A stretch of 64,000 bases of DNA from an uncultured archaeon. GTDB lineage: Archaea; Asgardarchaeota; Heimdallarchaeia; Heimdallarchaeales; Kariarchaeaceae. Below, in pieces: positions 41,801 to 59,304 of the stretch (its first letter is position 1; every line of letters starts with the position of its first letter). Below the pieces are notes generated by a model, which did not search any database, had not been told where the DNA came from, and saw nothing but the letters and a program-made list of their open reading frames with translations. The position numbers and the translations under genes were made by a program. Location of the stretch: assembly GCA_964645535.1 (NCBI GenBank), contig CAZYCQ010000003.1:43328-107327 (forward strand), in the 5' to 3' direction.

Positions 41801-43340
41801 GGGTCTATTCGTACTGGGGTCAATCAATTCATTGACGGTTCTTTTCCGCAGGGAAGAGGCTAAGTTCGAAACAATGTTGGCCGGCATTCAATGGGATATC
41901 TTGGCGGTAATTTTTGGCCTTTCCCTTGTATTGATCAGTGATTTCCTAACGGGCTTTGTCGCTTCATCCCTAGATGAGAAAAATGAATTAGCTTCCGATC
42001 TTCCATTTCTTACAGTTAAAACGATTTCAACCATTATTGCAACATTAGGAATTCTTTTAGTACTCTCAAAACTCCTTAACCGATTTTTCTCCATCATTGG
42101 CTTCGTGGGTTGGAAAACCGTCAAGAGAAAGGAAGGACTGATATTCAAGGGCTTTCATATGCATATCGGTCTTTATGGAAGATTACTCATTGTATTTCTG
42201 ATCAGTATTTTCCTTGTGGTACCAATGTTCACCATTCCGGTTTCACTGAACAATGAATACAAAGTTTCAGCCTACAATGAGTTTTCAACAGATATCAGTG
42301 TACTTGAGTGGCATGCCGTGCCAAATCTTACACGGAGAGAAGTCTTAGGTATTGATGGAATTAAAAGCCATTCAGAATATTTCATCGGAATTGTGCCTTT
42401 TGCCAATGACCTAAAGGCATTAGTACTTGCCATTAATACCTCCACGTTCCTTTCAAGCATTTATGTTCCGAACAAATATCTTCCGGATTATGGGATCAAT
42501 CTTTCAGTAGTAGAAGATTTGAAAGAAGGTGAATGGTTGGGAAACAAGGCATTTTTGGAAAGAAATGCCTTTGACCCAGGAGATCGTCCGCTTTTCAGAT
42601 TTGAACATACATCAAAATCATACCCAATGAAGGTAAAGGCAGGATTCGACCAATTCCCCATACTTAAGCGTGAAGCAGTACGGCTTAATGATCCAATTGC
42701 CTATCCGCTTCAGATGGTAATTTCCTTGGAAACCCTCAAGGAGATACAGGACATATATTTGTTCCAAAAAACGGAAACATCTTCAGAAACTGCCAGAAGG
42801 CTTGAGGAGAGAAATCTACTGATCAGAAGCAAGAGGATTGACCAAGTGCCTGAAATGGTGGAAGAAATTAAATCGCTTACCGGAAGACGAATTGAGCATA
42901 TCAACACCTTCATTAATAAACAACGCCATCCGTTTTTCAGGGCATTTGAATTTCTCACCCACTTGAGTTTAATAACGGCAGCCCTATCTCCATTACTCGC
43001 CACCTTTGTGCTAGCTAAGCTTCTTTTTGAAAGAAGAAAAGACGAATGGGAGGTGTACTATAGAATTGGAATTTCCAAAGGGTTTTTCATTTTCCAAGTG
43101 ACCCTTGAATTGATTCTTTCAACGCTTTTACCGAGTTTGCTAGGTATTATAGTTGGAAGAATTTGGACTGAGAACAATGGATCACAACTTTTTGGCCTTG
43201 AAGGAAGAAAAATTGAACGGATGGAAATGACAGATTGGATATATGCTTGGGTAGGTATTCAGATCATTCTCTCCCTTTTCATTTGGATACAACAAATGAA
43301 TAGCATGCTCAAACGGCATATCAAGGAGGTTAGGCTGTGA
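38898..43340 (+). CDS. Giant (1480 aa) ABC-transporter permease with two FtsX/MacB-type 4-TM modules and large extracytoplasmic domains
   Basis: N-terminal signal peptide and a ~450-aa sequon-rich domain. FtsX-like blocks VLIVPILALAVLVTYDALGMNRLSITEEIRRFKREGMRTERIV (~41500-41630) and LITAALSPLLATFVLAKLLFERRKDEWEVYYRIGISKGF (~42960-43090). GTG start, with the stop overlapping the GTG start of the ATPase gene. Confidence 0.8.
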   Translation: MQHRLFVIFLLALILVSQPAVANQTYSQPIGFFLLEDGEDFFSVLPLGTKKDDSGNVHVWFNYIEPTLHEDQERLVVLYYAVISETGEVFIKELDRHPFSLSKVAFFDWNELRILPNGTVMGIFVAPSDFGVDLNLVRWNGNLSVITLEQQSEFDFSGDIIGPIDKPDENFLYLLDGEFGGSKSIMKLEFSREGNLLNKTVVGFPTLLDDSKEITDIFDATYANGTFFYSVALRENGAFDSLGVVSQINQTTVSLFAKSMDYNVKEIANIPFLRNLRQDILTPRLVATENGKLYSYLFGFDNSVNFLGIWTNGTLKDIFTNSTENPFQLSFFPLLSAIGDHLEIYFLGIQYAQDAISFTVDHFTYFENGTLTKEKFLDPNLSGDIFLFIPDPQAQDFTAIASTFNTPRTSRIDYGILNETVGGLYLLSSESLPPIEPMFFNLILENEQTTAKEFNPLIYLYPAIGSLMLLFAILTYANWRKRRLAIPPELQKLLDTKPELISEGKEVEKFVHRLRLNLIYLRSNAKRIIRTILIMFIPALLFSTLILGILTYQANLLSTYQAQNPLNDIEDLSLESNMKTDFTWTNLWFSDEFQESNFSEVDFAIPEQLSSQSLKSFGIEDLGFRLSSVVTFPLFEPVFLNLTFGEENIQVNLPFPREFGVVDQRWFQYLTDHLIRGRLPQHPGEVLVLDSWYVEPVAFLPDEPSGVIWDVGSTIEVAASELDVFLNSTVQGLKQNVTVVGVLERVESLPFSEVKEWTEKLNTTTKGLRLLDKVPFVTFSHLMGKFLNEFSRLSLRPTAHINMRYEVEKVNRDAIPELVQNLKEMGNETLRFTGFTWTGNYSSKRIVEFLEGYYLASRDIQLETVVLIVPILALAVLVTYDALGMNRLSITEEIRRFKREGMRTERIVLLLLAEQAMTTLASIILSLATVNYATQEMIRFTGYFEHGDVFVPQVTWEQLPWIGIGTFLGLFVLGSINSLTVLFRREEAKFETMLAGIQWDILAVIFGLSLVLISDFLTGFVASSLDEKNELASDLPFLTVKTISTIIATLGILLVLSKLLNRFFSIIGFVGWKTVKRKEGLIFKGFHMHIGLYGRLLIVFLISIFLVVPMFTIPVSLNNEYKVSAYNEFSTDISVLEWHAVPNLTRREVLGIDGIKSHSEYFIGIVPFANDLKALVLAINTSTFLSSIYVPNKYLPDYGINLSVVEDLKEGEWLGNKAFLERNAFDPGDRPLFRFEHTSKSYPMKVKAGFDQFPILKREAVRLNDPIAYPLQMVISLETLKEIQDIYLFQKTETSSETARRLEERNLLIRSKRIDQVPEMVEEIKSLTGRRIEHINTFINKQRHPFFRAFEFLTHLSLITAALSPLLATFVLAKLLFERRKDEWEVYYRIGISKGFFIFQVTLELILSTLLPSLLGIIVGRIWTENNGSQLFGLEGRKIERMEMTDWIYAWVGIQIILSLFIWIQQMNSMLKRHIKEVRL

Positions 43341-45016
43341 ATTGGGCGGTCGAAGTTGAAAATGTGGTCAAAATCTATCGGCATAAGTTTGATGGAACAA
43401 AAATTTCTGCCCTTCAAGGTTGCGATCTGCTGGTGAGAAAAGGAGAAGTCCTAGCCGTTATTGGACCCTCTGGAGCAGGGAAGTCCACATTGCTGCGATT
43501 GATTGCAGGAATAGAACAGCCCTCTAGTGGAAGAATCTCAATTGGTGGAATCTCAATCCAAGATTGGGATGAAACCAGAAGGAGGGAATTTCGGAGAAAA
43601 TTCATCGGTACATTTTCACAGCATGCCAGAGATAATCTAGATCCGGATATGAAAGTTTCCGAGGCAATTGAATGGGAACTAATAAATGCAGATTGGAAAC
43701 GGGATGAAATTGCACCTCGAATTGCAAGGGTTCTTGAAAGATTGAATATTGCCGGATTGAGAAACTCGCTTTGCAGAAACCTATCCGCTGGAGAGGCCAT
43801 GCGAGTTTCACTTGCAAAGGCCATTGCAAAAAAACCCTTTGTGGTTCTAGCGGATGAACCTTCCGGTCAACTTGACACTGAGAATATGAACCTACTCTTC
43901 AAGCTGATGAAAGAAGCCGCTAAGGAAGGAACGGCAATTGTCGTTGCCACACATGACACAAGGTTCCAAGCCCTTGCTGACAGATCTGTCATGATCCTCG
44001 AGGGAAAACTCGCTTCTGAAGAAGAAGGCATTGATTTGCTGCAACAGCATTTGGATCTTGACAAATTGCGAGAGCAAGGAGAATTGACAAGAACTGTAAT
44101 TGTCGATTCAACCAAACATATTCGTCTTCCATCTCCAGTAATCTATACCTTGGAACTAAATCGAAAAGCAAAAATTGTAATTGATTTCAGAACCGGAAAT
44201 GTTCGTCTTGAAAAACATCCTGAAGATGACCAATTCATTGTGGATGCAGAAACAAAGGAACCAGAGCTGAAATTTTCAAGGGAAAATGTACAGAAGAGGC
44301 CGTTCATTACATTTGAAAAAGTCAACAAAAGCTACGATGGAAAAACCAAAATTGATGTGATCAAGAATCTTGATTTGGAAATTCTTGAAGGAGAATTTGT
44401 AGTACTTTTAGGACCTTCAGGGGTAGGCAAGACTACCCTAATTGGCATGATTTCAGGACTTGAAAAACCTACAAGTGGAACTCTTTCTGTCAAAGGGACT
44501 CAACTTGAAAAAATGTCTGTAGGAGAGCTTTCCGCGTTTAGGAAGAAAAATATTTCATTGCTTACACAGAATTACATCCTTCACCCATATCTGACTGTTG
44601 AGGAGAACATTGCCTTGAGTTACAGAATGATGGATCAGGAGGTAGATAGGAAGAGCATAATGGCAGTCCTCAATAAATTGGAAATGACCCGGTATGCCAA
44701 TGTGTATCCCGGAGAGCTTTCCGGTGGACAAAGACAAAGAGTTGCATTCACATCCGCCTTTCTCAAGCCAAATTACGATCTTATTCTCCTTGATGAACCA
44801 ACTGCCAATCTTGATTCAATTCTTGCACGAAAAATCATGAATCTGCTTACAGAGCTGGCAGAGACAGGAAAGACAGTTCTTCTTGCAACCCATGATCTGA
44901 CAATGGTTCGACCGGGTTATAGGGTGTTGAGGATCAAGGAGCAAAGAATCTTCGAAGATGTCATTGCAACGGAAGAATATTGCAACAACCTAAAGAAGGA
45001 ATATTTTCATCAATAA
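43337..45016 (+). CDS. ABC transporter ATP-binding protein with two tandem nucleotide-binding domains
   Basis: NBD1 has GPSGAGKST, a degenerate signature LSAGEAMRV, and VVLADEPSGQLD. NBD2 has GPSGVGKTT, LSGGQRQRV and LILLDEPTANLD. An AGGAGGT SD lies ~7 nt upstream of the GTG start. Confidence 0.9.
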   Translation: MNWAVEVENVVKIYRHKFDGTKISALQGCDLLVRKGEVLAVIGPSGAGKSTLLRLIAGIEQPSSGRISIGGISIQDWDETRRREFRRKFIGTFSQHARDNLDPDMKVSEAIEWELINADWKRDEIAPRIARVLERLNIAGLRNSLCRNLSAGEAMRVSLAKAIAKKPFVVLADEPSGQLDTENMNLLFKLMKEAAKEGTAIVVATHDTRFQALADRSVMILEGKLASEEEGIDLLQQHLDLDKLREQGELTRTVIVDSTKHIRLPSPVIYTLELNRKAKIVIDFRTGNVRLEKHPEDDQFIVDAETKEPELKFSRENVQKRPFITFEKVNKSYDGKTKIDVIKNLDLEILEGEFVVLLGPSGVGKTTLIGMISGLEKPTSGTLSVKGTQLEKMSVGELSAFRKKNISLLTQNYILHPYLTVEENIALSYRMMDQEVDRKSIMAVLNKLEMTRYANVYPGELSGGQRQRVAFTSAFLKPNYDLILLDEPTANLDSILARKIMNLLTELAETGKTVLLATHDLTMVRPGYRVLRIKEQRIFEDVIATEEYCNNLKKEYFHQ

Positions 45017-45018
45017 CG

Positions 45019-45966
45019 TCAACTTGCAAGGGTTATATCCGAATTTGCGTGCCGTGAAAGAATATGACTATATTTTTCTTTTATTTTTGCTGCTTCAACC
45101 CTTTCCATTGCCAATTCCACATATTTCTGTTCCAGCTCGGTTCCCAAAAAGGTTCGTTTGGTATGGAGAGCTGCAATCGCCGTCGTTCCACTTCCCATAA
45201 AAGGATCAAACACCACATCTTCCTTGAAGGAATAGAGTTGAATCAATCGGTAGGGAAGCTCAATCGGAAAAGGAGCAGGATGACCGATACGTTTGGCCGA
45301 GGTTGTCGGAAAGTTCCAGATGGATTTGGTGAATTCCATGAATTCTTCCCTTGAAATTGTTGATGTTTTGTCTTTTTTGGCCCGTTTCATGGTGCCTTTT
45401 GAGAAAACCAAGATATATTCATGAACGTCACGAAGAGTGGGATTGGAAGGACTCTTCCAAGACCCCCAAGCAGTGCTGGAACCTGCACTTGCCCCCTTGT
45501 CCCAAATGATCTCACCTCGTTGTAGATAACCAATGTCAGAAAGGATTTGAGAAACATAATCCGAGATGGGAATATATGGTTTCCTTCCCACATTTGCAAT
45601 ATTGATGGCAACTCTTCCTCCATCAACCAATTTGGGATAGATCTCTTCAAACACATCTCGAATAAGCTCTAGGTATTCAGTGAGTGAAAGATCCATGTCG
45701 TAATCTTTTTTGGCGTTGTAAGGGGGAGAAGTCACCACAAGATGGAGGCAATTGTCAGGAATAAAGGAAAGATCACGGGCATCTGCCTGGACAATGGTAT
45801 TTTTGAGATGGGAAGGCAATTCATTCTCTTCACCTTTGGGGCTATAGTTAGGTGCTTGACGGATTTCCCGGTACATGGCAGATTCGTAAAAAATTGAGGA
45901 ATCGTGATTTTCGCGTTTTGAAGCACCAAAAGAACTAGTTTTCGTCCGTTTTTTCATGACTTTCAC
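45019..45966 (-). CDS. Beta-class N4-cytosine/N6-adenine DNA methyltransferase (N6_N4_Mtase family), SPPY catalytic motif
   Basis: Motif IV VVTSPPY (SPPY = 45718-45729) precedes the AdoMet motif I FDPFMGSGTT, which is the beta-class order. GHPAPFPIELP block present. The ORF-track start is GTG at 45966; the ATG at 45957 (MKKRTK...) is more likely. Confidence 0.85.
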   Translation of the reverse strand: MKVMKKRTKTSSFGASKRENHDSSIFYESAMYREIRQAPNYSPKGEENELPSHLKNTIVQADARDLSFIPDNCLHLVVTSPPYNAKKDYDMDLSLTEYLELIRDVFEEIYPKLVDGGRVAINIANVGRKPYIPISDYVSQILSDIGYLQRGEIIWDKGASAGSSTAWGSWKSPSNPTLRDVHEYILVFSKGTMKRAKKDKTSTISREEFMEFTKSIWNFPTTSAKRIGHPAPFPIELPYRLIQLYSFKEDVVFDPFMGSGTTAIAALHTKRTFLGTELEQKYVELAMERVEAAKIKEKYSHILSRHANSDITLAS

Positions 45967-46291: not shown

Positions 46292-49200
46292 TTACCCTCG
46301 TTTTCGCATCTCCTCGATCTTTTCTGCAATTTGTTCAATTATAATTTCTATGAACTCCTTATCCTCTAAGTCAGAATTATACACCCTGAATACATCCCAA
46401 CCATTCTTCTTTAACAATATGTCAATAATTCGATCTTTTTTGTTTGAAGGTGTATGAAATGTGTTCCCGTCGATATAGATCGCGATTTTCTCCTCTTTAA
46501 AAGTAAAATCTGGGATGGTATATGGCATGTTTATATCACCAAGATCCACCTTTTCCTGTGTGGTATATCCAAAGAGCCTGTGTAACTTCAAATAATTCTC
46601 AAAAATCATTTCAGGCGGGGTTGACGATTTAGAAATCAAAGAAGGCTTGTAATTTTCAGGAATTACATGCTGAAATTTAGGTCTTAATTTAAGAGAGTTC
46701 AAAAGATCTATGGCCAAATGTCTATTCAATAAGTCGTGTATAGGTTGGTTCCAATATGTTTTCATACATGCATAGCAGGATGTTTCACACGCGTTTCCAC
46801 AATCCATTAGTTTTTCGATTGCAGAATCTATAACATTTATCCACTTCTCAATCAACTGTTCGAGAATTCCGGAGCCCCCCTTCATAGGATCGAACAAAAT
46901 CCCATTGAGTTGTTCCTCTGGAGTTGAAAATACGAAATAGTCAAAGTCCTCACGATTACTCTCTAAACTGTTTGAAATGCCTATCAAAATCCCTTCAAAA
47001 ATATTTACGTACTCGTCTTTGGTATCAAATCCCTTCAACAAAATACATTCAAATTCTGATTCATAATAAATCCCAAACCTAAATGAACGACTTCCACATT
47101 TTTCGAGGTGGAACTTCTGGAACTTTTCCAAATGCTGCTCTTTTGTGAAGACCGACCTAACCGCCCCACAATTTGGGCAAATCGGGTATTGAAGTAGGGT
47201 TGAGTCTTTCTCAACTCCGGAATTCAATAACAGAATACTCTGATCGGAAATATGTTCCAATATTTTATCTCCAATTTCATATCTTTTCCCTTCACCATTG
47301 AACTGTTGAGGTTTACCGTTCAGCTTAATAGGAAGAACTCGCCTAAATTCCTCGGCATCTGAATCGACCCTTCCCACATATCTTAAGATAACGTTACTTA
47401 GAGGAATTGCACCAATTGAATATGAATTTTCCTCAGGATTTGAATAGCCAACCCAATCCTCATTTGATTCAATCACCATTTCACCTAAAATTGTGAAGTG
47501 GCGGATATCAATTCCCACTTCACCAATTTTTGAAAGCTCTATCAGGCTTGTACTGAATTTCGCACCTAATACATAAAGGGCATATCCTGGAGAGAATTCC
47601 CTAAGAGCAATCGGAGCGATTCTTGAAAAGGCAAACTCAGGAACAATTGATCTGCTGGGGGGTGGACTTTGAGCGATTACACCTTCTGTATTTGCGGAAT
47701 ATGCAGGCAATAATCCTTGATTTTGATAGAAGTTATATGTATAGTTGTCAAAATTCTTACTCAACATCTTTGTATAAATACGCCTATAAATTTCAAGGAG
47801 GTTTTTTTCCTCCCTATCCAAATCTCTTCGAAGGTTCGAAAGATCTCTGTAATTTTTTTCGGCCCATATGAATCGGGACTGTAGATTTTTGATTACTCCA
47901 AGGAGGGATTCAGGGAATTCTTTAAGTACGGACTTGTGAAATTTTGGATCTGCAACACCTTTGGCCTCCCTAGGCCAGCGGATGCTGAAAATCTTCCGAA
48001 TTTCCTCAACAATTGAACTTTCATTTGCACTTATGAAATCTCTAAGTTCTTTGATTATGGTTTCATTCGAAGGCACTGTTATGTAACTCCCATTTTCACC
48101 AACCAGAAATGATTTCACGAAAGGAGGGAGGATTTTGTTGTAAATGTCCATCCTGTTGTTTCGAATTACTTGTGCAAGAACGGTCGCATGAATATGCTTC
48201 CTTACCATCGTCCGATTTTTGAGATTAAAAACCGGAGTCAATGTTTTTCCGTTCAACATCCGTGACGGATTGTTGAAAAAGTAATCGTCATGTGCGTTGT
48301 TAGTACAGTAATTGAAAATTACGCCAATCCCTTCTCTTCTGCCCACTCTTCCCGCTCGCTGCCAATAATTCGATGGTGTCGGTGGAACATTTCTCATCAA
48401 AACAACGTCCAAACCTCCAATATCCACACCTAGTTCCATTGTTGGACTCGCTACCAATACGTTCGTTGATCCTTTCGGTTTCTTGAATTCTTCCTCGAAT
48501 TGACGGCGAAGTTCTCCGGGAACTTGCGCAGTATGTTCTTTCGGAAGCAAAAGCACAAAATCCGAATCTAAAGTTGAAAGATTGTAATCATCATCTGGCA
48601 GGGGAATTTTCACCAATCGCCCTTCACAACGCCATCCTATGCAAACGGGGCTGGGGTTGGGATGAAGCAGACCACAAATTTGGCATTGATACATCCTTCT
48701 TTGGGATTTGGGAACAACCTTAATCCCGACTTTTTTACCATTCAACTGATAACCTGTTGCCCAAGTTTCGGCTCCCCGTTTAATTTTTACTTCCACTGGA
48801 ACTAGGAGGTTTGTTTTTTCTGTTAGGAATTGCCAGATGTCTTTGAAAAACGATTCCAACGATTTTATATTGATTCCAGATTTACGGACAAGACTAGTAT
48901 AACTTGTTTCATGAGTCCTTGAGTAAAAATTCTTAATTCGTTTCTTGCCACCATCTCCTTTTTCAAATTGAAGGAGAAACGGTGAATGTTCAACGACATA
49001 ATACGGTAGGTATCCAGATAAAACCTCTTGGTCACCTTCCTTCCAGAAACGTGAAAAAATATTATGCGTTTTGCCATACGAAAAGACTCTGTTCTTTCGC
49101 GTTAAATGAAGCATATTTCGAATAATTTCGGTAAGAGTCTCTTCATCGATTGAATAAATCCGAGAAAGTTCTTTAATATGTTCATTTTCTGGATTGAGAT

Positions 49201-51550
49201 CCTCATACTCAATGTTTATTACACCCATTCCCTCCAAGTTTTCCCGGTTCGAATAGCGGTTTGTAATTTCAATTAAAATACGGTATACCAATATGGTTTC
49301 CAAAGTTGATTTGAAATTTTTTGAGAAGGACTCTCCTGCCGTTTCTCCAAATGCATCCGGGAACAAATTCATCGCCAGGTCCCTATCTTCGTACAGAATT
49401 TTAGTTAGTCCCTGCACAAGGTCACCTATTGAAACAGGAATGGATCCATCCTTGGTTTCTTTCCTCAACACTTCAAACATTAAATGACGTAGACGATAGA
49501 CCTTCGCCTTATCAGTCATCCAAGCTACTTGAAAGGCAGCCTCTTGACGGTTGTCCGCAAACATCAGCAGTCGTTGAGAATCTTCCGGAAGGTTGAACAG
49601 GATTTCTTGAGCAAGAATATAGTTGTTTGCCACTTGAATTCCCTGAACCTTGGCCATGGGTTCATACCTGCCCTTGGTGCTGCGTTCACAAGTTCCACAT
49701 CGATTGATTTTCTCCCCTTTTTGAACCAGCGCGAATACCTTGACCAGTTTGTCATGTCCACAGCCTCCAGAGGCACAATGTTTTACATGCTTGTCATGCA
49801 ATGTGCCACACTGCTCACAGGCAAACAAGGTTTCAAAATGGCGATTTGAATCTTCATCTTCTATCCCATTCAAATTATTCGAAAACAATATTCTTACGCC
49901 ATCTTCCTCCTTTTTAGCTTCATAATAATAACACGAGCCATCTGAACTTGGTAACCCCCTCTCAGTGATGGAACCGGTCTTCTTACCCTCGATCATTGTG
50001 TACCGCTGTTCCAAATAATGCTGATTGCAGTTTCGACATATCAAGACAGGAAAATACCGCTTTTCTCCCGTTGGGTTATCCTTCATGTGCAGGATAACCT
50101 TAGTTCCAAGCCCACTCGATACAAGTTCTCCTCTTAACTCCCTTATCCCACTAACGAAATAATGCAGTTTTGCCCGAAACAGAGGATCCCCATCCTTTTG
50201 AGCAATTGATGCCAAGGCGAGATAAAGTAGGAGACTATGAACCAATCCTTCATCCTTGGAAAAACCCAAGTCCCGACTCACTTCGTCCAAGACGTAAGTT
50301 AGGTTTCTCGGTCGTTCCAAGTTTTGTGCAATAGACCTGATGAACTTTAATTTCGGGAGATATTCAAACAAAGATTCCCTCCAATTAGCACTGGGATCAA
50401 GTTCCAAGTTGGGTGCTACATGCTCCATTGCATATCTTACGGCTTCAAAGATAGCATCTTCCTCTGAAAGATTCGAATCGTATAGTTTCTCTAGAAAGTT
50501 ACGATAGACGTCTTCGGGATTAGTTATTTTCCTTGGTTTAATCAACAAAGCACTCCTGATCTGCCAAACTTGCTGGTCATAGCTTGGACCAATAACTCTC
50601 GTCCTTTCCGGAGGAGATCCCGTTAAGCGAAACATGAATTCCTTTGTTTCTGATTCCTCACCTAAGGTTGCACTGGTGGCTATGCAGACTACCTCATCTG
50701 CATCGGCGTGAAAGGTCGCAGATCGAGCGATGATCCGCCGGAAAAGGACAGAAGCCTCTGCTCCAAAGATCCCTCCATAGGTATGTGCCTCATCGATTAC
50801 CACATATTTCAAAGGAGCCCGCTCGAAAAGGTTGATATCCGATTTACGCGTTAGAAGAAGTTCGAGTTGAAACACATTTGTTATCAAGATCATTGGCGGG
50901 TCATTTCTGATCTCTTGCCTTGACACCCGTTGTTCTTCAGGATACACGCGCTTTTTTCGTTTAAGGGCAACTTTATATTCCTCCCTTGTTTGCACTCTTT
51001 CAACAGCCTCTTCTTGGTCTCGCGTATCCCCAGTATAAACTCCAAACGTCACTCCAGTTCCGACCAGAAGCTTGCTGATCCGTTCTAGCTGGTCATTTGC
51101 CAAGGCATTCATGGGATAGATTAGGATGGCCTGAACCCCCGACTTTCCTGCATCCCTCATCTTTAGACAATGGCTAATAATAGGAATAAGAAAGGACTCG
51201 GTCTTTCCAGAACCAGTGCCTGTTGTAATAATCGTATGCTGATCACTTACAATTGACCGGATAGCATTTTCCTGATGCTTATGGAGTGTAAACTGAATTA
51301 GATTTTTGAGACCTGGGTGGAGCAAGCCCTCATCGACAAGCTGAGAAACTTGCATACCTGTTTGGAATTTCCTCTCCAACGAGATAAACGGTCCTTTAAT
51401 CAAAGGCGACTTACTTAAATCGTTGAACGAAATAAGGGTTCTAAACTGTTTCTGCAAATCAGGGTCTGCAAATCGAAACGCAGTTAATTGGTACCTAAGA
51501 TATTGTTCCAACACCTTTTGCGAAAATGTTATGGGATTGAATGACTTCAT
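46292..51550 (-). CDS. 1752-aa DEAH-box SF2 helicase fused to a DUF1998-like Cys-rich module and a C-terminal Vsr/DUF559-like endonuclease domain (DrmA+DrmB-like / DruE-like)
   Basis: Motif I [9 protein letters not shown] (51197-51223), motif II DEAH (50783-50794), SAT, [13 protein letters not shown], then after a ~330-aa insert [67 protein letters not shown]. Several CxxC pairs. [20 protein letters not shown] (46766-46801) resembles the DUF1998/MrfA Zn module. The tail [21 protein letters not shown]...NGWDVFRV (within ~46295-46620) resembles Vsr/DUF559. Confidence 0.85.
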   Translation of the reverse strand: [1752 protein letters not shown]

Positions 51551-51554
51551 CTGT

Positions 51555-51561
51555 TCACCTC
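51555..51561 (-). promoter_or_regulatory. Shine-Dalgarno GAGGTGA for the helicase gene
   Basis: The minus strand reads TGAGGTGAACAG-ATG. The SD overlaps the MTase stop codon. Confidence 0.5.
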
Positions 51562-54500
51562 ATAGGAATTTTCCCAAACCAGTCGACATTTCCTCGTCGC
51601 CGTCACCAAAGCATTCCCTATCATCATGGGTATCGCCATAAATTCTATGCAACTCAGCGTCTTCTGCTTGACAGCGTGCCCATCCATCATCCGTCATGTT
51701 GAGTTGCCAATCAAGGAAACGAGGACCCAATTCAGTTCTTGCATATTCCGGAAGTTGCCAATCCTCTTCAAGAAACTTATCAAATCCCTTCTCCAACAAA
51801 TCTTTATATGCTAGAAGGCAAAAAGTTTGAATCCTCATGGGTTTGGGTTTTTCTTTGTCAACTCTCCAAAAGCCTTGTGGGTTGGATTTGTCAAAAGAGA
51901 GGATGTATTCAAACTCCTCATACGTTAAGTTGTAAGCATAGGCAGCGCACGCGTTTAAAATAGCATAAATTCTTGTTCTCTCATGTAGAGTCAAAGCCCA
52001 CTCTTTGGCATAGAATGGCACTTGATTTCTGAAACAGAGCCAAAAGTGGGCAAATGCGGGTGCATTGCAAACAAAATTCAAAACAAGTTTGGTAATAAAC
52101 CTGTTCGAAAAATTTGAAAGGTGGTTTGGAAATCTGATTAAAGTAATTATATCTTTTGTTAGAGAGCTTTTAGTCAACCAAATTCTCGTTAGAAAATCAA
52201 AGCAAAAGCTCATTAAAACTGAAACAGCTGACGTATAGATACTATTAGTACCGGTCAACGTTGGTAACTTGTGGGTACATGAATAATTTGGGATCAAGGT
52301 AGAAATGAAAGATCTTTGGTTTGTATTGCTCGCGATATCCCTAAAAACAATTTTGGGCATTGGACTGCCAACAATTCGGGTTTTTGCATCCTCTAGCCTC
52401 ATATAGTATTCTGTTACACAATATTGCCTATCGAGCGGGGTTTCCTCAGTCTTTACCCTTTTTGCACTTCCAGAGAGATAGTTTGCTGCTGCAAAATCTC
52501 CGATCTGAATGTGTTTTCCTCCATACACCGGCAAAAATGTTTCCTTCCCATCGTGATAAATTCCGTACTTATTGACGTTGTTCCTGATTTGGGCATCACG
52601 CACAAAAAGGCTGGATGCCCCAGAGGCATCAAATTCTCTCATATACTTCAAGCCCAGATCCTCGAAGTTGGGATTGAGAACCAACTTCCCGTCTTCCTCA
52701 TGGGTCGACATCTTGATCAGCAATTCATACTGTTTTCTCGAGGTGAGAGCAATCAGCTTGAATTGGTCGCCTGTCAGTAGCTCCATTAGCTCAGGGGTTT
52801 GGTTGAAAACATAGGGTTCATCAAATGTTGCGTTTTCCCAATCCTCCAGATCCGTTCGGTAAAATGCCGTGTAGACACCTGTTGCAGGTGCACCTTTTTG
52901 GCAGACGAAGGCCGCGAACATGAAGCTGGAATGTATTTCAAAGATCTTCTTCCGATTGCTGAATGAGAAAAACCATTCCCAACGGGATTGCTCAAACAGC
53001 ATTTTTCGAAGCTCACTGGAACCTGTCTCCGTACCCAAGCCCATGTCTAAAATTAATCCGATCCTACCGCAGGGTTTGGCAATATGTATCGCAAATTCTG
53101 TGAATAGCTTGTAGTAGTTTTTATCGCCTATGCCTTGATACAGGAAAGGAATAGTGAATTCCCCTTCCTTCCGGTCGATAGTTCCCCCGCGATTGCCGAT
53201 GTAGTTAGTCAATGACAGGACTTGGTTGTTGTAATGAAGCCATTCTTTCTGAATCGAATCTGATTGAAGCAGCCTTTTCTTGACAACCTTCATCTCTTTT
53301 GAGGCGTAAATGTCTATTAAGGGATGGTAATTGACAAGAAATTCCTTGGTCTCAACCTTGATCTTCTCCCATGGTGGATTGCCAATTACGGCATCAAACC
53401 CTCCCTTTTCGAATACCTCGGGAAATTCAAGTTCCCAGTGGAAGAACTTGACTTCATTCGCATAGCGGAAGACGATACGGTCAAATTCTGGATCGCCTTC
53501 TGCTAACATTCGTTTGAAGCCATTGCCACTAAATCTATCTTTGAACTTGACAAATTCATCATGAGAGATAAACCAGAGGGCTGTCCAGAGATCCATCCGC
53601 CGTTTTATTGACACATAGTTTGGTGAGGTGAGCAGCTTGTTGTAATGATCGTATTTTCGTGTTTCGTCAAAATCCACGATTATTTGCTCACGGTTCTCGA
53701 TCAAGTTTTTTATTTCGGTATCGATAAACTCATGGAGGGTTGTCTGATTAATGTCGATCCGGGAACCAAGAGTTTTCACTTCACTTTTGAATGGTTTTGT
53801 TTTCTTCTCCTTCTCATTCATTTCTTCCCGTTCTTTGATTGCATTGATGGGAAACCGTGCGGACTCTATTTCCGCCTTCCAAGCACCTACAAGAGAGTTG
53901 CCGACCTTTAGTTTGTGGTCCAAAAATTTGAAGGGAAGGGTATTGTCCATGGTTTCAAGCCATAACGCAAGTTTCGCCAATTCCACAGCCAGTGGGTTAA
54001 TGTCAACCCCATAGATACATCTTTCGATGATGACCCGCTTTAGCTTTCTTACGAGTAACTCCCAGTTGTAGGAACCGTTGCTCACCGTATGGTCTTCATA
54101 TTCCACACTGATACTGCCATTGATCTTGCAGAAAACCGTTGTTCCGTTGATTCGAATACGATTCGATTGTTCAAGGCTCCAAGCAAGTGCCTCGGATAGG
54201 TAGTTCAGGGCACTGATAAGAAAGCTTCCCGAACCCATTGCTGGATCCACGACATCAAGGTCAACAATATCTTCAGGAGATTTAAAGCTCCCATCCTCAT
54301 TTCTCACCAAGGGTTCGAGAGCCCTTCTGACTGTTGGCTTTACCAGTCCCGGCTTGGTGTAGAAGGTTCCAGAACCCTTTCGAGAGCCGTTCCAAGCAGA
54401 AATATAAAGCTTGCCGGGAGGAAAGACCTCAAGGATTAGTTTATCGTATGGAAGGTTCGTTTTAGTAATTTTTCTAAACCGGTCAACAAACTTGTTGATT

Positions 54501-56068
54501 TCTACCCTTATTTCATCTATTTCACTTTGACCAATAACCTCCTCTGAGGGTTCATATGTACCTGTTTTACCCTTATAGAGTTCTTTTAGTTCAAGATCTG
54601 TAAGAGAATTCAGAAGTTGGAGGGAAATAATTCTTGTCTCCTTCCCTGTGTTCAACACAACAGCCACTATGTCTTCTTCTTTGACCAAGCGAACCTGATA
54701 GTCAAGCAATCCTTCATAAATCATCCCAATGTATTCCGTTCCCAGTTCTGCAAAATTGACAGGCATGGTTATGGTTTTTTTTCTGTTTTTTACCGAGGTT
54801 TGAACCGGGGCAAATTTCAGCTTGCTTAATATTTGGTAGATTTCGTAATTGGTAACAATCCAGTTTCCCTCTTCAAAGAACGAGAGAGCTTTTCCGAGGG
54901 GTGTTTTGATTTTATTGCCGGGACGGAAAAGTTCTCCGGAATATGCCGGTATCGAGAAATCTGAAAATGGGGACCCATAATAAACAAGGTTGAATAGGGC
55001 GAGGATTCTGTACCAAGCATTTTTTTCTAGATTCATCTCTTCGGGAGACAATTCGCTTTCCTGTTCTTTTAGATCCTTCCATATTTTCTCTAGAGAATAG
55101 CCCTGTTGATAGATGGGTGAGCTTCCGACAGGCAACAGTCCCCTTGCTTCTGCGTACAGGATGACGATCAATCGGAGCATGATTCTAATTGCAGCATGAT
55201 ATATGGGTTCAAGTTTTTTGGGAGTGATGATTTCATCCTCGGGTTCTCCATCGAAGAGGGCAGAGAGAAGTTTACGGGTACCATCCACAGTCGCAGCCTC
55301 ACCCGATAGGAAGAGTTCTATTGCCTCCCGGATTTGTTCGCCAATTTTTGTGGAGAGAACACTTTGGCTTCTCCGACTTTGGAAGACATAATGTTCCAAT
55401 GGCTTCTTGTGCTCAGACAGAATACCGAATAGTCCTTCAAGAAGGGTGATCCCTTCATCGTTGAGCATATCGTGACAATTCCAAGTAACCCAGGCAAGAT
55501 TGTCAAGAGTTGCGTAGATAAGCCTTATTTGCGAACCATTGGTGAAGATTCCGAAGCGAATTCCATGATCCACCATCTCTCTTACGAATTTTGCCTGCCT
55601 TTGCCTCATTTTGCCAATACCCAATTTTTGGTTATCATGGACAATCATGACAAACAGATCCACATTAGACCTTTTTTTTCCATTCTTAGGTTTCTTCTTG
55701 GAAGATAGCAGGAGATTCCCGATTTGGTTTTCCTCTGCCTTTTGGAAGCTAATTTTCGTCCCATTAGACTTGACAACAGTCCATTTGGAGTGATCGGAAA
55801 GTTCTAAGGAGGTGAACAGTTTTTCAACCCATTTAAACCTTGAAAGTTTGGTCAGATCATTTTCTTTTTGGGCACTAAAGGTCTTGTTCACTTGGAAATG
55901 GTCGAATGCAAAACGCAGCTCATCGATCAAATTAGCCGGAAGGGTGTTCGGTCCTTCAGGAAACAGTTCCTCAATTACGGTTTCACTGAACATGAAACCT
56001 TCTTTTTCAAGCTGGTTCCACCATGAATTGTCTTTGAATTGTACGAGTTGTTTCTGAAGAGCGCTCAT
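51560..56068 (-). CDS. 1502-aa gamma-class N6-adenine DNA methyltransferase of the Eco57I/type IIG/PglX/DrmMI-like kind
   Basis: GTFYTKPGLV, motif I VVDPAMGSGSF (DPAMGSGSF = 54221-54247), IYGVDINPLAVELAKLALWLE, KVGNSLVG, FFHWELEFPEVF, and motif IV GFDAVIGNPPW (NPPW = 53369-53380). There is ~560 aa N-terminal to the MTase core and ~600 aa C-terminal to it. Confidence 0.85.
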   Translation of the reverse strand: MSALQKQLVQFKDNSWWNQLEKEGFMFSETVIEELFPEGPNTLPANLIDELRFAFDHFQVNKTFSAQKENDLTKLSRFKWVEKLFTSLELSDHSKWTVVKSNGTKISFQKAEENQIGNLLLSSKKKPKNGKKRSNVDLFVMIVHDNQKLGIGKMRQRQAKFVREMVDHGIRFGIFTNGSQIRLIYATLDNLAWVTWNCHDMLNDEGITLLEGLFGILSEHKKPLEHYVFQSRRSQSVLSTKIGEQIREAIELFLSGEAATVDGTRKLLSALFDGEPEDEIITPKKLEPIYHAAIRIMLRLIVILYAEARGLLPVGSSPIYQQGYSLEKIWKDLKEQESELSPEEMNLEKNAWYRILALFNLVYYGSPFSDFSIPAYSGELFRPGNKIKTPLGKALSFFEEGNWIVTNYEIYQILSKLKFAPVQTSVKNRKKTITMPVNFAELGTEYIGMIYEGLLDYQVRLVKEEDIVAVVLNTGKETRIISLQLLNSLTDLELKELYKGKTGTYEPSEEVIGQSEIDEIRVEINKFVDRFRKITKTNLPYDKLILEVFPPGKLYISAWNGSRKGSGTFYTKPGLVKPTVRRALEPLVRNEDGSFKSPEDIVDLDVVDPAMGSGSFLISALNYLSEALAWSLEQSNRIRINGTTVFCKINGSISVEYEDHTVSNGSYNWELLVRKLKRVIIERCIYGVDINPLAVELAKLALWLETMDNTLPFKFLDHKLKVGNSLVGAWKAEIESARFPINAIKEREEMNEKEKKTKPFKSEVKTLGSRIDINQTTLHEFIDTEIKNLIENREQIIVDFDETRKYDHYNKLLTSPNYVSIKRRMDLWTALWFISHDEFVKFKDRFSGNGFKRMLAEGDPEFDRIVFRYANEVKFFHWELEFPEVFEKGGFDAVIGNPPWEKIKVETKEFLVNYHPLIDIYASKEMKVVKKRLLQSDSIQKEWLHYNNQVLSLTNYIGNRGGTIDRKEGEFTIPFLYQGIGDKNYYKLFTEFAIHIAKPCGRIGLILDMGLGTETGSSELRKMLFEQSRWEWFFSFSNRKKIFEIHSSFMFAAFVCQKGAPATGVYTAFYRTDLEDWENATFDEPYVFNQTPELMELLTGDQFKLIALTSRKQYELLIKMSTHEEDGKLVLNPNFEDLGLKYMREFDASGASSLFVRDAQIRNNVNKYGIYHDGKETFLPVYGGKHIQIGDFAAANYLSGSAKRVKTEETPLDRQYCVTEYYMRLEDAKTRIVGSPMPKIVFRDIASNTNQRSFISTLIPNYSCTHKLPTLTGTNSIYTSAVSVLMSFCFDFLTRIWLTKSSLTKDIITLIRFPNHLSNFSNRFITKLVLNFVCNAPAFAHFWLCFRNQVPFYAKEWALTLHERTRIYAILNACAAYAYNLTYEEFEYILSFDKSNPQGFWRVDKEKPKPMRIQTFCLLAYKDLLEKGFDKFLEEDWQLPEYARTELGPRFLDWQLNMTDDGWARCQAEDAELHRIYGDTHDDRECFGDGDEEMSTGLGKFL

Positions 56069-59000
56069 AATTTCACCTCCATTTCATCAGCCAAATGGAA
56101 ACCCGCAGTAACTGCATAGATTTCTTTGGACCGAATTGTATACCTGTTTGGAATAATGTGATTTTGCATGAATTCAGATTCCTGTTTTGCATGTTTCTCT
56201 ACTGATTTAATGTATTCATTGTAACCTGTTTGGAAGAAGTGGTCAATTTCCTCCTCAAGTTGTCTGATCTTTTTTTCTTGGAGCATTATCTGCCTTTTAT
56301 GTTCTTCAGGATCGAAGTACATGTCTATGCTGGATGTCTGAAGGGTCTCAAGAATCTTCTTTTCATGTTCAAACTGCTTCCTCAAGATGTTTGAATAGAT
56401 AGAACGGTTTCGGAGCTCATCCAATTTTTCAGCAAGGATTTGTTTTTCCCTGTTAAGTTCCTCCATTTTCTGTTTTTCGATTTTTTCCTGAATTTTCTGG
56501 GTAAGTTTTTCTGCATGCAGACCAATATTTTCCTCAATTTTTGAAGAATTGCTCACCCAAAATTTCCGAATATCTGAGATCAATCCTTGGTGAAGTTGAA
56601 TTTTCTCTTCTTCATTACCAAGGTTGGGATTATCTGAGGGTCCCCGAAATTCTAATAGCCTCCTCTTAAGATCGATTTTGAACTCAAGTGATTCAAGGGA
56701 AGCATGAATAATTTCGGAAAGATTATTTCGAAAGATTAAAAGGACATTGATTTTAAGAACATTTTGGTCTGCCTTGCTATCTATGACCAAATACCAACGA
56801 GTAAGAGCGGTATCAGTATCCCAAATGAAGGATCGCATTGTAATCAGCGCTCTTTCCATCAGGGGATGCCCTAGCGTCAAAAGCTCCTTTGTATCAGATT
56901 TTCTGAAAACCTTCCTGTTGTTTTCTTCAACCAGGAGTTCATTATGATCGAATACGAGAACCTTATTGGTTTTATGGAATAGTTGGTTGAAAATTTTCTC
57001 CCACTTTCCGAATTTTGTTACAATTAAGCCATTAGCTTCCTCCCGAGCATCACCACCAACAAACTTTAGGGCATGAAGGAAAACCTCTTTCATGGTTTCA
57101 GGATAGAGGTTGAAGTAACGGTTTGTCTCGATGAAGCTCATACTAGCGGACGTAGTATTCTTGATGTTGAATTCTTTTGGAGTCATGTCCTTAACTGGGT
57201 CACTCTCGAACTCGAATTCATCTAATGTTGTTTGTTGATAATCCCTCAAATATAGATGCCTTAAAATTAGGCTTTCCAAAATTTCACCAGTCTTTCCGAG
57301 ATCGTCCCTGATGCTAGCTACTTTTTGTGCGATTTTGTTCAAAAATTTCAGGTCATCGTTTTGGTCGGAGGCAAAATGGTAAACATAGACATCTCTGGAT
57401 TGACCATGTCTATCAACCCGTCCAATTCTTTGTTCAATTTTTGAGGGGTTCCAAGGGATATCATAATTTATGAGGTATCTACAGAAAAATTGCAGGTTCA
57501 TCCCTTCTGCTGCGGTATCAGAAGCAATGAGAATTCTCTCTCGGGTATCTTTTGCATTGAAAGCTTTGATTATTCTTTCCCTCTCGGAAGCCGATGTTCC
57601 TCCATGAATAGTTGCTATTAATTCCTCCAACCGTTTGTCCTCTGAAATTAATCGATTTTGAAGGTATTCCAAGGTATCAACATATTCCGTGAAAATGATA
57701 ACTCGTTCATCTTCCTTCTCAACCACCTTTGAATTTAGCCAATTGACCAATGCATTAAATTTTTCATCATTTATCTTCTGAAATTGATTCCCTGAATAAC
57801 CCAGCCTTGCAAGTTGTTTGTTTATCCGTTCATGAATTTGTACAACATCTTCTGATGCTGTTTTTGGTCGAATGACCGTTGAGGCTGACTTTAGCGCGTT
57901 TTTTTCCAGCCTTTCTTTTTCTTCGTCGGTTAATTCTTTCTGAAGGGCATTCTTTATTTGTCTTCTTGCTTCATCATAAGTAATTTCATAATCAATCTCT
58001 GTTGGAAGTGTGTGCATTTTCCATGATATGCTGAAAGCCCAGCCAGATGAAAGCAGTCGTTTTTTGAAAAATGTGACCAAATATCCAGTAATGCGTCCGT
58101 AATCCTCATTTTGATCCTTATTTTTCAAAATGTCAAGATATTCATCGAGCAGTTCGAACAGTTTAATTTCATCTGGTCCGTATTCCAGCCTTATGATTTC
58201 ACTCTTTCTCTCAGTAAAGTAATTGTTACCATTCGGATCTTTTATCTCAGATTTAATTCTCCTGATGACGCTTTTTGGGATTTGTTTCGCCATGTGAGAA
58301 TCTTTGGGAATTTCTGTAGTCTGATGAAAGTTTAGTGGATCCAAAATTTCAAGCAGCCCAGTAAACGAAGATGTAAAGCCATTGTGGGGAGTTGCGGTTA
58401 AAAATATCCGATGGCTACAGAAGGCCGAGACTTCGCGCAGCATCATTGTTCTCAGACTATTTGAAGCCGTAAGATTTCTTGGAGCGAAGTTGTGGGCTTC
58501 ATCAACAATCAACAGATCCCAAGCCCTTCTTGAGGATTTTTCCCGGCTTCTCGCCGCAAAAATGAAGCTGTTTTTTACATCCTCCTGACGGAGATAATCC
58601 ATTGAGGTTATTATGCGTGCAATGGATCGCCAAGGGTTGTAGTCAAAGCCGTATTTTCTTTGTAGATGATTTCTGGTTTGGGAGTTTACAATGGTGAAAT
58701 TCAGTTGGAATTTTTCGCGTAGCTCCTCTTGCCATTGACTTTGGAGAGCTGACGGGCAAATTACAAGTATCCGTTTCACTCCCCGTTGAGCGATCAATTC
58801 TTGCATTATTAATCCTGCCTCGATTGTTTTTCCAAGCCCTACACCGTCTGCAATAAGTAATTTTACCCTGTTTTGTTTGAGGGCGGTATACACAGGTAGA
58901 AGTTGGTAGTCCTCAATTTTCACTGCACTCTTCCATGGACTCACAATGGACAATTTTTTGTCATTTTCGCTTAACATGTTATAACCGATTGTTGTCCACC

Positions 59001-59304
59001 TGACTGCATTGATAAATGAGTTCATGAAACCAATATTTGTTGGATTTGCTTCTCTGACAGGTGGCATCTCCAAATTGGTATAAATCTGTCTATCAATTTC
59101 TCTCTCCCAGAGGATTGTCTCTTCTCTCGATCCAAAGGATTGGTCTAAATATTCAACCTCAACCAAGTGAAGGTTTTTTGAATTCTCTTCCATGGAATCA
59201 GACTTTTCTGAGGTCACAGATACTACAACCGCCCTGCGGCCACGGACTCTGACAAGCTGACCGGCTTGGGGAATTTCGGGGGAATTTTCGTAACTCCCTC
59301 TCAT
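56065..59304 (-). CDS. SNF2-family helicase/ATPase (DrmD-like), 1079 aa
   Basis: [15 protein letters not shown] (DGVGLGKT = 58825-58848), IVDEAHNF (DEAH = 58492-58503), [38 protein letters not shown]. The C-terminal ~430 aa is unassigned and includes a Lys/Glu-rich coiled-coil-like stretch. The stop overlaps the MTase start (ATGA, 56065-56068). Confidence 0.9.
   Translation of the reverse strand: [1079 protein letters not shown]
56073..56080 (-). promoter_or_regulatory. Shine-Dalgarno GGAGGTGA for the large methyltransferase
   Basis: The minus strand reads GGAGGTGAAATT-ATG. It lies inside the 3' end of the SNF2 gene. Confidence 0.5.

Follow-up and report, generated by a model that had tools for sequence, protein, structure and literature searches.

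The window analysed here is a 64,000-nucleotide stretch of contig CAZYCQ010000003.1 (positions 43,328 to 107,327) from an uncultured archaeon of the family Kariarchaeaceae. Its minus strand carries an uninterrupted open reading frame (ORF) of 1502 amino acids (aa) at 51560..56068, as given by the ORF listing and its translation. We conclude, with a probability of roughly 0.75, that the product is ArmB, the PglX/DrmMI-like N6-adenine methyltransferase (MTase) and specificity subunit of an archaeal ARMADA type I-like operon, and that its N-terminal domain (N-domain) is a degenerate nuclease. ARMADA is an anti-virus system, named in 2025, in which ArmA is a RapA/BrxHII-like SNF2 protein, ArmB a PglX-like MTase and ArmC a YprA helicase with DUF1998 and Vsr domains (bioRxiv 10.1101/2025.09.15.676423; see PMC13463889 for a further study, in enterohaemorrhagic Escherichia coli). 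The protein is an ordinary, divergent archaeal member of this published family. A dead-nuclease origin of its N-domain would be a modest addition to the published ARMADA accounts; our literature search found no description of the ArmB N-domain as an inactivated nuclease.

A first-pass annotation of the window had recognised a very large adenine MTase here without giving its strand. All of the MTase motifs that it named were found in the minus-strand ORF, and the plus-strand frame of the same region is closed by many stops. The motifs are motif X GTFYTKP (aa 567-573), motif I DPAMGSGSF (aa 608-616), IYGVDINPLAVELAKLALWLE (aa 685-705), GNSL (aa 723-726), FHWELEFPEVF (aa 876-886) and motif IV NPPW (aa 897-900). 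The segments VDLFVMIVHDNQKLG and IRFGIFTNGSQIRLIY lie in the N-terminal region, at aa 136-150 and 170-185.

The same annotation left about 560 N-terminal and 600 C-terminal aa unexplained. This is true for Pfam, whose matches are limited to the MTase core (Eco57I, E 1.3e-22; N6_Mtase; MmeI_Mtase), but not for PADLOC, in which REase_MTase_IIG (PDLC03622, E 3e-164) spans the whole length and DrmMI (PDLC02643, E 7e-125) covers aa 11-907. Searched at full length with phmmer, the protein had no match among PDB sequences at E <= 1. The N-terminal region, once offered as a novelty, falls under the PADLOC DrmMI models and is what ArmB/DrmMI proteins normally have at this end. Nor do the last ~600 aa lack an explanation: by Foldseek and the family profile, they comprise the rest of the MTase fold, a target recognition domain (TRD) and a PglX-like helical domain.

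Gene order and system identity

The gene upstream of ArmB (56065..59304, minus strand) encodes a 1079-aa SNF2 ATPase of the ArmA/DrmD type (RapA/BrxHII-like). It was recognised by NCBIfam (DISARM_DrmD equivalog, 669.7 bits; cutoff, 610), PADLOC (DrmD, E 7.8e-202) and Pfam (SNF2-rel_dom and Helicase_C). The two genes are translationally coupled, with an overlap of 4 nucleotides (nt) between the SNF2 stop and the ArmB start. On the other side, 9 nt past the ArmB stop, begins the gene for an ArmC-like YprA-family DEAD/DEAH helicase of 1752 aa (46292..51550, minus strand; Pfam and PADLOC). Its Pfam domains are DEAD, Helicase_C, MZB (DUF1998; aa 1524-1596) and, as a Vsr-like nuclease, MTES_1575 and DUF559 (aa 1661-1744). 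The top PADLOC match of this protein is DruE, in line with the report that ARMADA helicases are closest to Druantia helicases (Bell et al. 2025, bioRxiv 10.1101/2025.09.15.676423 / PMC12458937).

The order SNF2-MTase-YprA is the one published for type I ARMADA of archaea and cyanobacteria, where the SNF2-MTase pair precedes the YprA helicase (bioRxiv 10.1101/2025.09.15.676423). The genome analysed here is itself archaeal: it encodes ribosomal protein L24e, for which the controls gave matches in archaea only. Type II is marked by ArmD, a GajB-like or RelE-fused helicase. No UvrD-like ORF was found after the ArmC-like gene, which fits type I rather than type II; the genes that follow encode a 315-aa N6_N4 MTase and then, convergently, an ABC ATPase. 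With an SNF2 gene in the operon, a YprA-DUF1998-Vsr helicase, a PglX-like MTase carrying GxG and NPPW, and no ArmD, every testable feature of the locus fits ARMADA type I, the ArmC-like label being taken from domains and gene order. A DrmMI-like DISARM or a type IIG system, both of which had been considered earlier, describes the locus less well than this assignment.

Genes for an SNF2 ATPase and a YprA/MZB helicase also lie near the ArmB homologue in all three relatives examined (P0003, P0005 and P0013; loci L001-L003). In L002 and L003 the three genes are arranged and oriented as in the window, with two additional genes inserted in L002, and L001 has the SNF2 gene on the opposite strand, between two MTase copies. 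The insertion in L002 (L002:14990-16720) separates ArmB from ArmC and encodes a DUF6577 protein and an AbiEii toxin, so that one defence system is nested in the operon of another. In L001, which is metagenomic, the two ArmB-like MTases are paralogues of 1558 and 1554 aa flanking the SNF2 gene, with the YprA/MZB helicase beyond (L001:1612-14665). This pair may represent a duplication providing two specificities.

The N-terminal domain

The first 215 aa of ArmB (55424..56068, minus strand) form an alpha/beta domain. Based on hhalign comparisons, an AlphaFold2 (AF2) model and alignment column counts, our reading is that it derives from a PD-(D/E)xK (MmeI_N-like) nuclease, lacks the catalytic triad and probably no longer cuts, both in this protein and in its family. 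The earlier view that some 560 N-terminal aa might be nuclease-like thus stands for aa 1-215 but not for aa 224-566, which are a helical spacer and an MTase extension shared with MmeI/PglX-type enzymes.

A word-indexed search seeded with aa 1-560 returned 57 homologues (best identity 36-40%), which fell into three groups, clades A, B and C; the N-terminal family alignment was built with aa 1-640 of the query. Clade A comprises the query and proteins in ARMADA context. Clade B consists of about 20 stand-alone, type IIG-like proteins of ~1230-1400 aa with a TaqI_C TRD, and in all 19 that were aligned NEaQtE in helix 1, PDY, G(D/E)xK, PxxQxxxY and WGILTNGxxWRL are invariant. Clade C (e.g. P0023 and P0025) has degenerate nuclease motifs. 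The resemblance noted in the first-pass annotation to the 'TNG..hRLY' strand that follows PD-(D/E)xK cores is confirmed, in that the strand is present in 19/19 of the stand-alone type IIG-like homologues and the query N-domain is homologous to theirs. The query N-domain carries the strand FGIFTNGSQIRLIY and the family loop G150-I-G152-K153-M-R155.

This homology was detected by hhalign between the N-domain profiles of clades A and B (95.5%, E 1.5e-8, query aa 23-221, 189 columns) and between those of clade A and the DrmMI-like clade C (97.2%, E 3e-11). A reversed-profile control of the clade A comparison gave 0.4%. Pfam points the same way: MmeI_N is the sole N-terminal match in members of all three clades. 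It passes the cutoff in P0023 (28.9 bits against 27; aa 59-258 aligned to profile positions 19-179) and is sub-threshold in P0007, P0022, P0035, P0036, P0045 and the query (aa 158-254, E 0.019). The AF2 model of aa 1-640 (predicted local distance difference test score, pLDDT, 85.4; predicted template modelling score, pTM, 0.83) is low in confidence at aa 91-140 (54-68). Its order of helices (H) and strands (E) in the N-domain, H71-87, E97-99, E105-107, E138-142, H153-167, E172-176, E180-186 and E191-197, is compatible with the alpha-beta-beta-beta-alpha-beta core of restriction endonuclease-like folds.

The state of the motifs follows gene context in the homologues that we inspected. P0036 of clade B has intact motifs and is a solitary gene, as a stand-alone type IIG enzyme should be. 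The degenerate P0025 lies in a DrmD-DrmMI...DrmA-DrmB locus, i.e. class 1 DISARM, and the degenerate P0003, P0005 and P0013 lie in ARMADA loci.

To count residues at the former active site, we used the query and 49 alignable relatives, clustered at 50% identity (n = 50), from a HMMER scan with aa 1-225 over 1.84 billion cluster representatives, which gave 58 proteins at E <= 1e-3. The clade A signature is present in 49/49 of these relatives. By MAFFT, the query equivalents are P127-K128 for PD and H144/D145-N146-Q147 for (D/E)xK. Position 127, the Pro of PD, is Pro in 88% of the sequences, but position 128, the catalytic Asp, is Asp in only 26%, Asn in 30% and His in 14%, with Lys in the query; position 129 is Arg in 80%. 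The acidic position of (D/E)xK (the column of H144, with D145 as the query residue) is Asp in 80%, and the catalytic Lys at +2 of that acid occurs in 0%. QxxxY of the active enzymes is replaced by (Y/Q)xxFLELLR in clade A.

The first-pass annotation had found no clean D...(D/E)xK triad, and this is borne out in the query and across the family. It had also noted that an intact triad would make the protein a type IIG enzyme; the candidate PD position holds K128 or Q109, and the Lys is found in 0/50. Among the three options it offered (an inactivated nuclease, a sensor or a docking module), the inactivated nuclease fits best. The missing triad and the domain map together suggest that ArmB serves modification and specificity only and is not a type IIG enzyme.

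In place of the triad, the family has a new conserved motif. The loop hGxG(R/K)xR (window 55606-55626, aa 148-154) is 82-96% conserved in ArmB-like N-domains and absent from the nuclease-active relatives. Gly is found at positions 150 and 152 in 96% and 82% of the sequences, and Lys/Arg at 153 and 155 in 86% and 94%. We regard this loop as a candidate new functional site. The N-domain is retained in 13/13 relatives compared, at 23-32% identity, which is similar to the TRD and below the 49-58% of the MTase core. Its retention and the conserved basic loop argue for a non-catalytic job of the fold.

Several findings weigh against a nuclease ancestry or against its complete silencing. Foldseek found no significant neighbour of the aa 1-640 model in the PDB, where unrelated helical proteins scored best (E 0.37), or in BFVD, where a phage 'Type I restriction enzyme R protein N-terminal domain' (E 0.21, probability 0.6) and a 'PD-(D/E)XK nuclease' (E 2.4) are no more than suggestive. 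Likewise, the N-terminal 500 positions of the family profile had no match in the PDB, MTase matches beginning at motif X. The nuclease fold is thus argued from profile homology and secondary-structure order. The homology signal itself sits in two flanks, the N-terminal helices (aa 23-88) and the TNG strands; without the TNG strands, hhalign aligned only aa 23-88 (E 2e-3, probability 12.7%). The catalytic-core segment between them (aa ~90-150), where AF2 confidence is 54-68, is not reliably alignable and seems to have diverged beyond that point. MAFFT and hhalign place the PD equivalent differently, at P127-K128 and F108-Q109, respectively, with no acid at either in the query. A conserved Asp and many basic residues are still present near the former site. 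In the nearest homologue, P0003 (L003:10001-14716; 36% identical over aa 1-560), ISFQ...VHDNQK of the query corresponds to IPDF...(44 aa)...ITDKK; a PD...DxK pair may have survived in it, and some ArmB-like members may retain more of the site. Finally, the N-terminal 270 aa of the type II ArmB of E. coli (Sakai ECs_5262) reached a probability of <= 3% against each clade profile in hhalign, and we therefore do not extend the dead-nuclease claim to type II.

When read by eye, the first ~270 aa of ECs_5262 from E. coli O157:H7 Sakai (L007:36769-41703) contain LPVLARY...LWIVEAHD...RFVLLLGNRQLLLLDR, which looks like a degenerate PD...ExK...TNG series; no profile comparison of this region was significant.

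These points bear on three other explanations. The N-domain might be an alpha/beta sensor or docking domain with no nuclease ancestry, sharing only the TNG-strand motif and some N-terminal helices with type IIG enzymes. This would account for the lack of a significant Foldseek match to any PD-(D/E)xK structure, the weak hhalign signal ahead of the TNG motif, the unalignable and poorly predicted core, and the sub-threshold MmeI_N match of the query. We consider it unlikely, however, given that the flank matches are collinear on both sides of the core over 189 columns with a negative reversed control, that the intermediate clade containing P0023 links the query to MmeI_N, itself the sole N-terminal Pfam match in all three clades, and that the PD proline and the (D/E)xK acid are conserved at the expected spacing. 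The domain also precedes an LYAE(A/D)RGLLP helical spacer, as in the active enzymes. A functionless relic, retained only because its removal would destabilise the protein, is the explanation to which we give least credence. Conservation along the protein is lowest in the N-domain, its aa 91-140 are predicted at low confidence, and the database homologues P0019, P0021 and P0004 begin within or after it, but these three may be truncated gene calls. Moreover, the domain occurs in both DISARM-type and ARMADA-type enzymes, and the high conservation of a non-ancestral motif over 50 sequences (G150, K/R153, K/R155 and R129) suggests that purifying selection is acting on a new function.

PD-(D/E)xK enzymes are known to undergo active-site migration, and ArmB could in principle be a bifunctional type IIG/ISP-like restriction-modification (RM) enzyme whose N-domain cuts through a non-canonical site, e.g. 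the conserved Asp together with a Lys/Arg migrated from GxG(R/K)xR. Its top PADLOC model is labelled REase_MTase_IIG, its N-domain has active nuclease domains among its homologues, one acid is conserved in 80% of the family with plentiful basic residues nearby, and the P0003 sequence is readable as PD...DxK. Nevertheless, this is very unlikely, as the query has Lys or Gln/Phe at the candidate PD positions and lacks a Lys two residues after the conserved Asp, as the family has that Lys in none and the first Asp in about a quarter of its members, and as QxxxY, invariant in the active clade, is lost. The intact-motif homologue examined in context (P0036) is solitary, whereas the degenerate ones all stand beside a nuclease-bearing helicase system, and the operon in the window has a Vsr-type nuclease of its own.

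The remaining domains and neighbouring genes

An all-helical spacer or coupler of the MmeI/PglX type follows the N-domain at aa 224-440 (54749..55399, minus strand), as judged from AF2, motif conservation and Pfam matches in relatives. AF2 places helices at aa 224-418 with pLDDT mostly >90. The spacer motifs LRLIVILYAEARGLLP (aa 298-313) and IPAYSGELFRP (aa 373-383) are invariant or nearly so in the 57 homologues, the nuclease-active ones included. Pfam MmeI_hel matches the motif of the LRLIVILYAEARGLLP region in the relatives P0023, P0035 and P0036 but not in the query. The BLASTP alignment with E. coli Sakai ArmB starts within the spacer (aa 238-729, E 9e-25), with a further segment at aa 865-1064 (E 2e-13).

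Between the spacer and motif X, aa 441-566 (54371..54748, minus strand) form an N-terminal MTase extension, in which AF2 predicts beta hairpins together with charged helices. Relatives vary in this segment, which is acidic in them. It contains IGMIYEGLLDY at aa 447-457, with G448, Y451 and E452 invariant or nearly so in the 57 homologues; IGxIYEGLL may correspond to the HsdM-type N-terminal motif. The whole of aa 224-566 is the common spacer plus MTase extension of MmeI/PglX-type enzymes, enlarged here, and holds no novelty.

The MTase core is of the gamma class of N6-adenine enzymes and occupies aa 567-1075 (52844..54370, minus strand; Pfam, AF2, Foldseek and family profile), with helical insertions in the AF2 model at ~731-865 and ~907-960. 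Its SAM-binding and NPPW motifs are intact. It is followed by a beta-rich TRD of the TaqI/CamA/PglX type at aa 1076-1275 (52244..52843, minus strand), assigned by Foldseek and profile with approximate boundaries taken from DSSP. The AF2 model of aa 560-1502 (pLDDT 84.7, pTM 0.87) matched PglX, BrxX, CamA, BseCI and TaqI in Foldseek at E 5.6e-13 to 1e-7, and DrdV was also matched. The best PglX/BrxX chains gave E 5.6e-13 to 1e-12, typically over about 920-980 aligned columns and over about 950-980 for PglX, and CamA was aligned over nearly its whole chain, MTase and TRD, with a template modelling score of 0.64 normalised to CamA. From motif IV through the TRD, the family profile aligns with CamA 159-548, TaqI 98-418, MmeI 478-882 and PglX 503-969, as well as with BseCI and BrxX.

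The last part, aa 1276-1502 (51563..52243, minus strand), is predicted by AF2 to be a helical C-terminal domain, to ~1487, with a disordered tail. The helices lie at model positions 718-928 with pLDDT ~77-97, and the tail falls below 50. Twelve full-length relatives were compared over this domain; 11 are 28-39% identical and P0070 is 21% identical, and PADLOC PDLC03622 includes aa 972-1444. We read the helical domain (aa 1276-1487) as PglX-like, with approximate part boundaries.

Downstream of the ArmC-like gene, at a distance of 325 bp, lies the gene for the 315-aa beta-class N6/N4 DNA MTase (45019..45966, minus strand; Pfam N6_N4_Mtase, E 1.5e-44; PADLOC MTase_II, E 3e-116). No counterpart was found beside the ArmA-B-C genes in L001-L003, and the enzyme is therefore probably independent or an orphan, not core to the system. 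It recalls DrmMII, the second methylase of Serratia class 1 DISARM. Also near the island, a 1480-aa ORF (38898-43340, plus strand) had no Pfam, PADLOC or NCBIfam match at E <= 0.01, and it is followed by an ABC ATPase with tandem nucleotide-binding domains (43337-45016).

Proposed mechanism and comparison with known systems

ArmB may descend from a type IIG-like RM enzyme whose nuclease was silenced once cleavage had passed to a partner, which would be the Vsr domain of ArmC in ARMADA and the phospholipase D (PLD) protein DrmC in DISARM. Its TRD would let it recognise a short asymmetric motif, and it would methylate host DNA to N6-methyladenine (m6A), and it is probably also required for restriction as the specificity factor, as in BREX and E. 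coli ARMADA II. The dead nuclease fold would then be under selection as a non-catalytic module, in which the basic GxG(R/K)xR loop and flanking Arg/Lys could bind the DNA backbone, dock to ArmA or ArmC, or do both. ArmA would translocate and ArmC would cut, and ArmA with ArmB would resemble a split type ISP enzyme without a nuclease of its own. The specific proposal that a basic RPxR...D...GxG(R/K)xR surface on the repurposed fold clamps DNA or couples the MTase to ArmA/ArmC, so that ArmA and ArmB form a nuclease-less type ISP-like reader licensing ArmC on unmethylated DNA, is tentative, and we hold it to be possible at somewhat worse than even odds.

If the fold has indeed been repurposed, silencing of a type IIG nuclease would mark the step from single-protein restriction to the multi-protein DISARM and ARMADA systems, and a type IIG enzyme with a silenced nuclease is suggested as the origin of DrmMI/ArmB. 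ArmB would be no self-contained restriction enzyme; cutting should come from the ArmC Vsr nuclease, with ArmB giving methylation and probably specificity. A domain map is now available for the ~1100 aa that Pfam leaves blank in ArmB-type proteins, and the conserved basic loop is a concrete target for mutagenesis in those ARMADA and DISARM systems that are tractable in E. coli.

The published description of ARMADA, with its Table S2, calls ArmB a 'PglX-like methyltransferase' with a CamA match in HHpred and does not dissect its N-terminus (bioRxiv 10.1101/2025.09.15.676423); the presence of CamA among our top Foldseek matches agrees with this. E. coli ArmB has, like the query, ~600 aa before its GxG motif (G605; NPPW at N971), and the two proteins share ~26% identity in the aligned parts, with the first ~230-270 aa unaligned. 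E. coli ARMADA II no longer defends its host when armB is deleted or when the NPPW motif carries N971A (bioRxiv 10.1101/2025.09.15.676423 / PMC12458937). Relative to ARMADA as described, the locus in the window has an additional small beta-class MTase downstream and no ArmD, as expected for type I. MANTIS (bioRxiv 10.64898/2026.09.23.753747) was considered as a relative and rejected as a different system.

DrmMI of class 1 DISARM (Ofir et al. 2018) has in common with the query both a DrmD partner and a degenerate N-domain (the P0025 clade), and the Serratia DrmMI methylates asymmetric ACACAG (bioRxiv 10.1101/2021.12.28.474362). The partner helicase is different, however: here it is a single DruE/ArmC-like fusion with Vsr, and DISARM has individual DrmA, DrmB and DrmC (PLD) proteins instead. 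The TRD of DrmMI-clade relatives is MmeI-type by Pfam, whereas that of the query is unmatched. Class 1 DISARM was rejected as an identity for the locus, since a single 1752-aa protein combines the helicase with DUF1998, no PLD domain was found and NCBIfam DrmA scores only 21-22 bits against cutoffs of 950-999.

PglX/BrxX of BREX type 1 (PDB 8C45, 8Q56 and 9EWZ) is the top structural match for aa 560-1502 and, like the proposed ArmB, is an MTase that also provides a defence system with its specificity. BREX PglX was nevertheless rejected as an identity, as NCBIfam BREX_1_MTaseX gave 40.3 bits against a cutoff of 500 and no BREX gene was found among the 7 flanking ORFs scanned (38898-63445). PglX begins with a helical bundle and is explicitly described as having no nuclease domain (PMC11341690). 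The first-pass annotation had raised the possibility of one helical scaffold shared by every PglX/DrmMI protein; this applies only in part, since the N-domain of the query is not such a common scaffold.

Stand-alone type IIG/IIL enzymes (the MmeI family; P0035 and P0036) have the same order of parts, from an N-terminal nuclease fold through an LYAExRGLLP spacer to a gamma MTase and a TRD. They keep E, PD, (D/E)xK and QxxxY (19/19), whereas the query is without the triad and stands inside a multi-gene system. The query is also longer by ~200-300 aa, owing to its MTase insertions and C-terminal helical domain. A true type IIG enzyme was rejected because the triad is missing, even though MTase and TRD share a polypeptide with a nuclease-derived domain. 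The family profile also matches the MTase of LlaGI (5FFJ, E 3.4e-6), a type ISP enzyme. By analogy, ArmA and ArmB together presumably make up the module set of a type ISP polypeptide such as LlaGI or LlaBIII. Unlike in type ISP enzymes, we take it, the modules are here divided between two genes, the nuclease-fold domain sits on the MTase subunit instead of before the motor, and the nuclease is dead.

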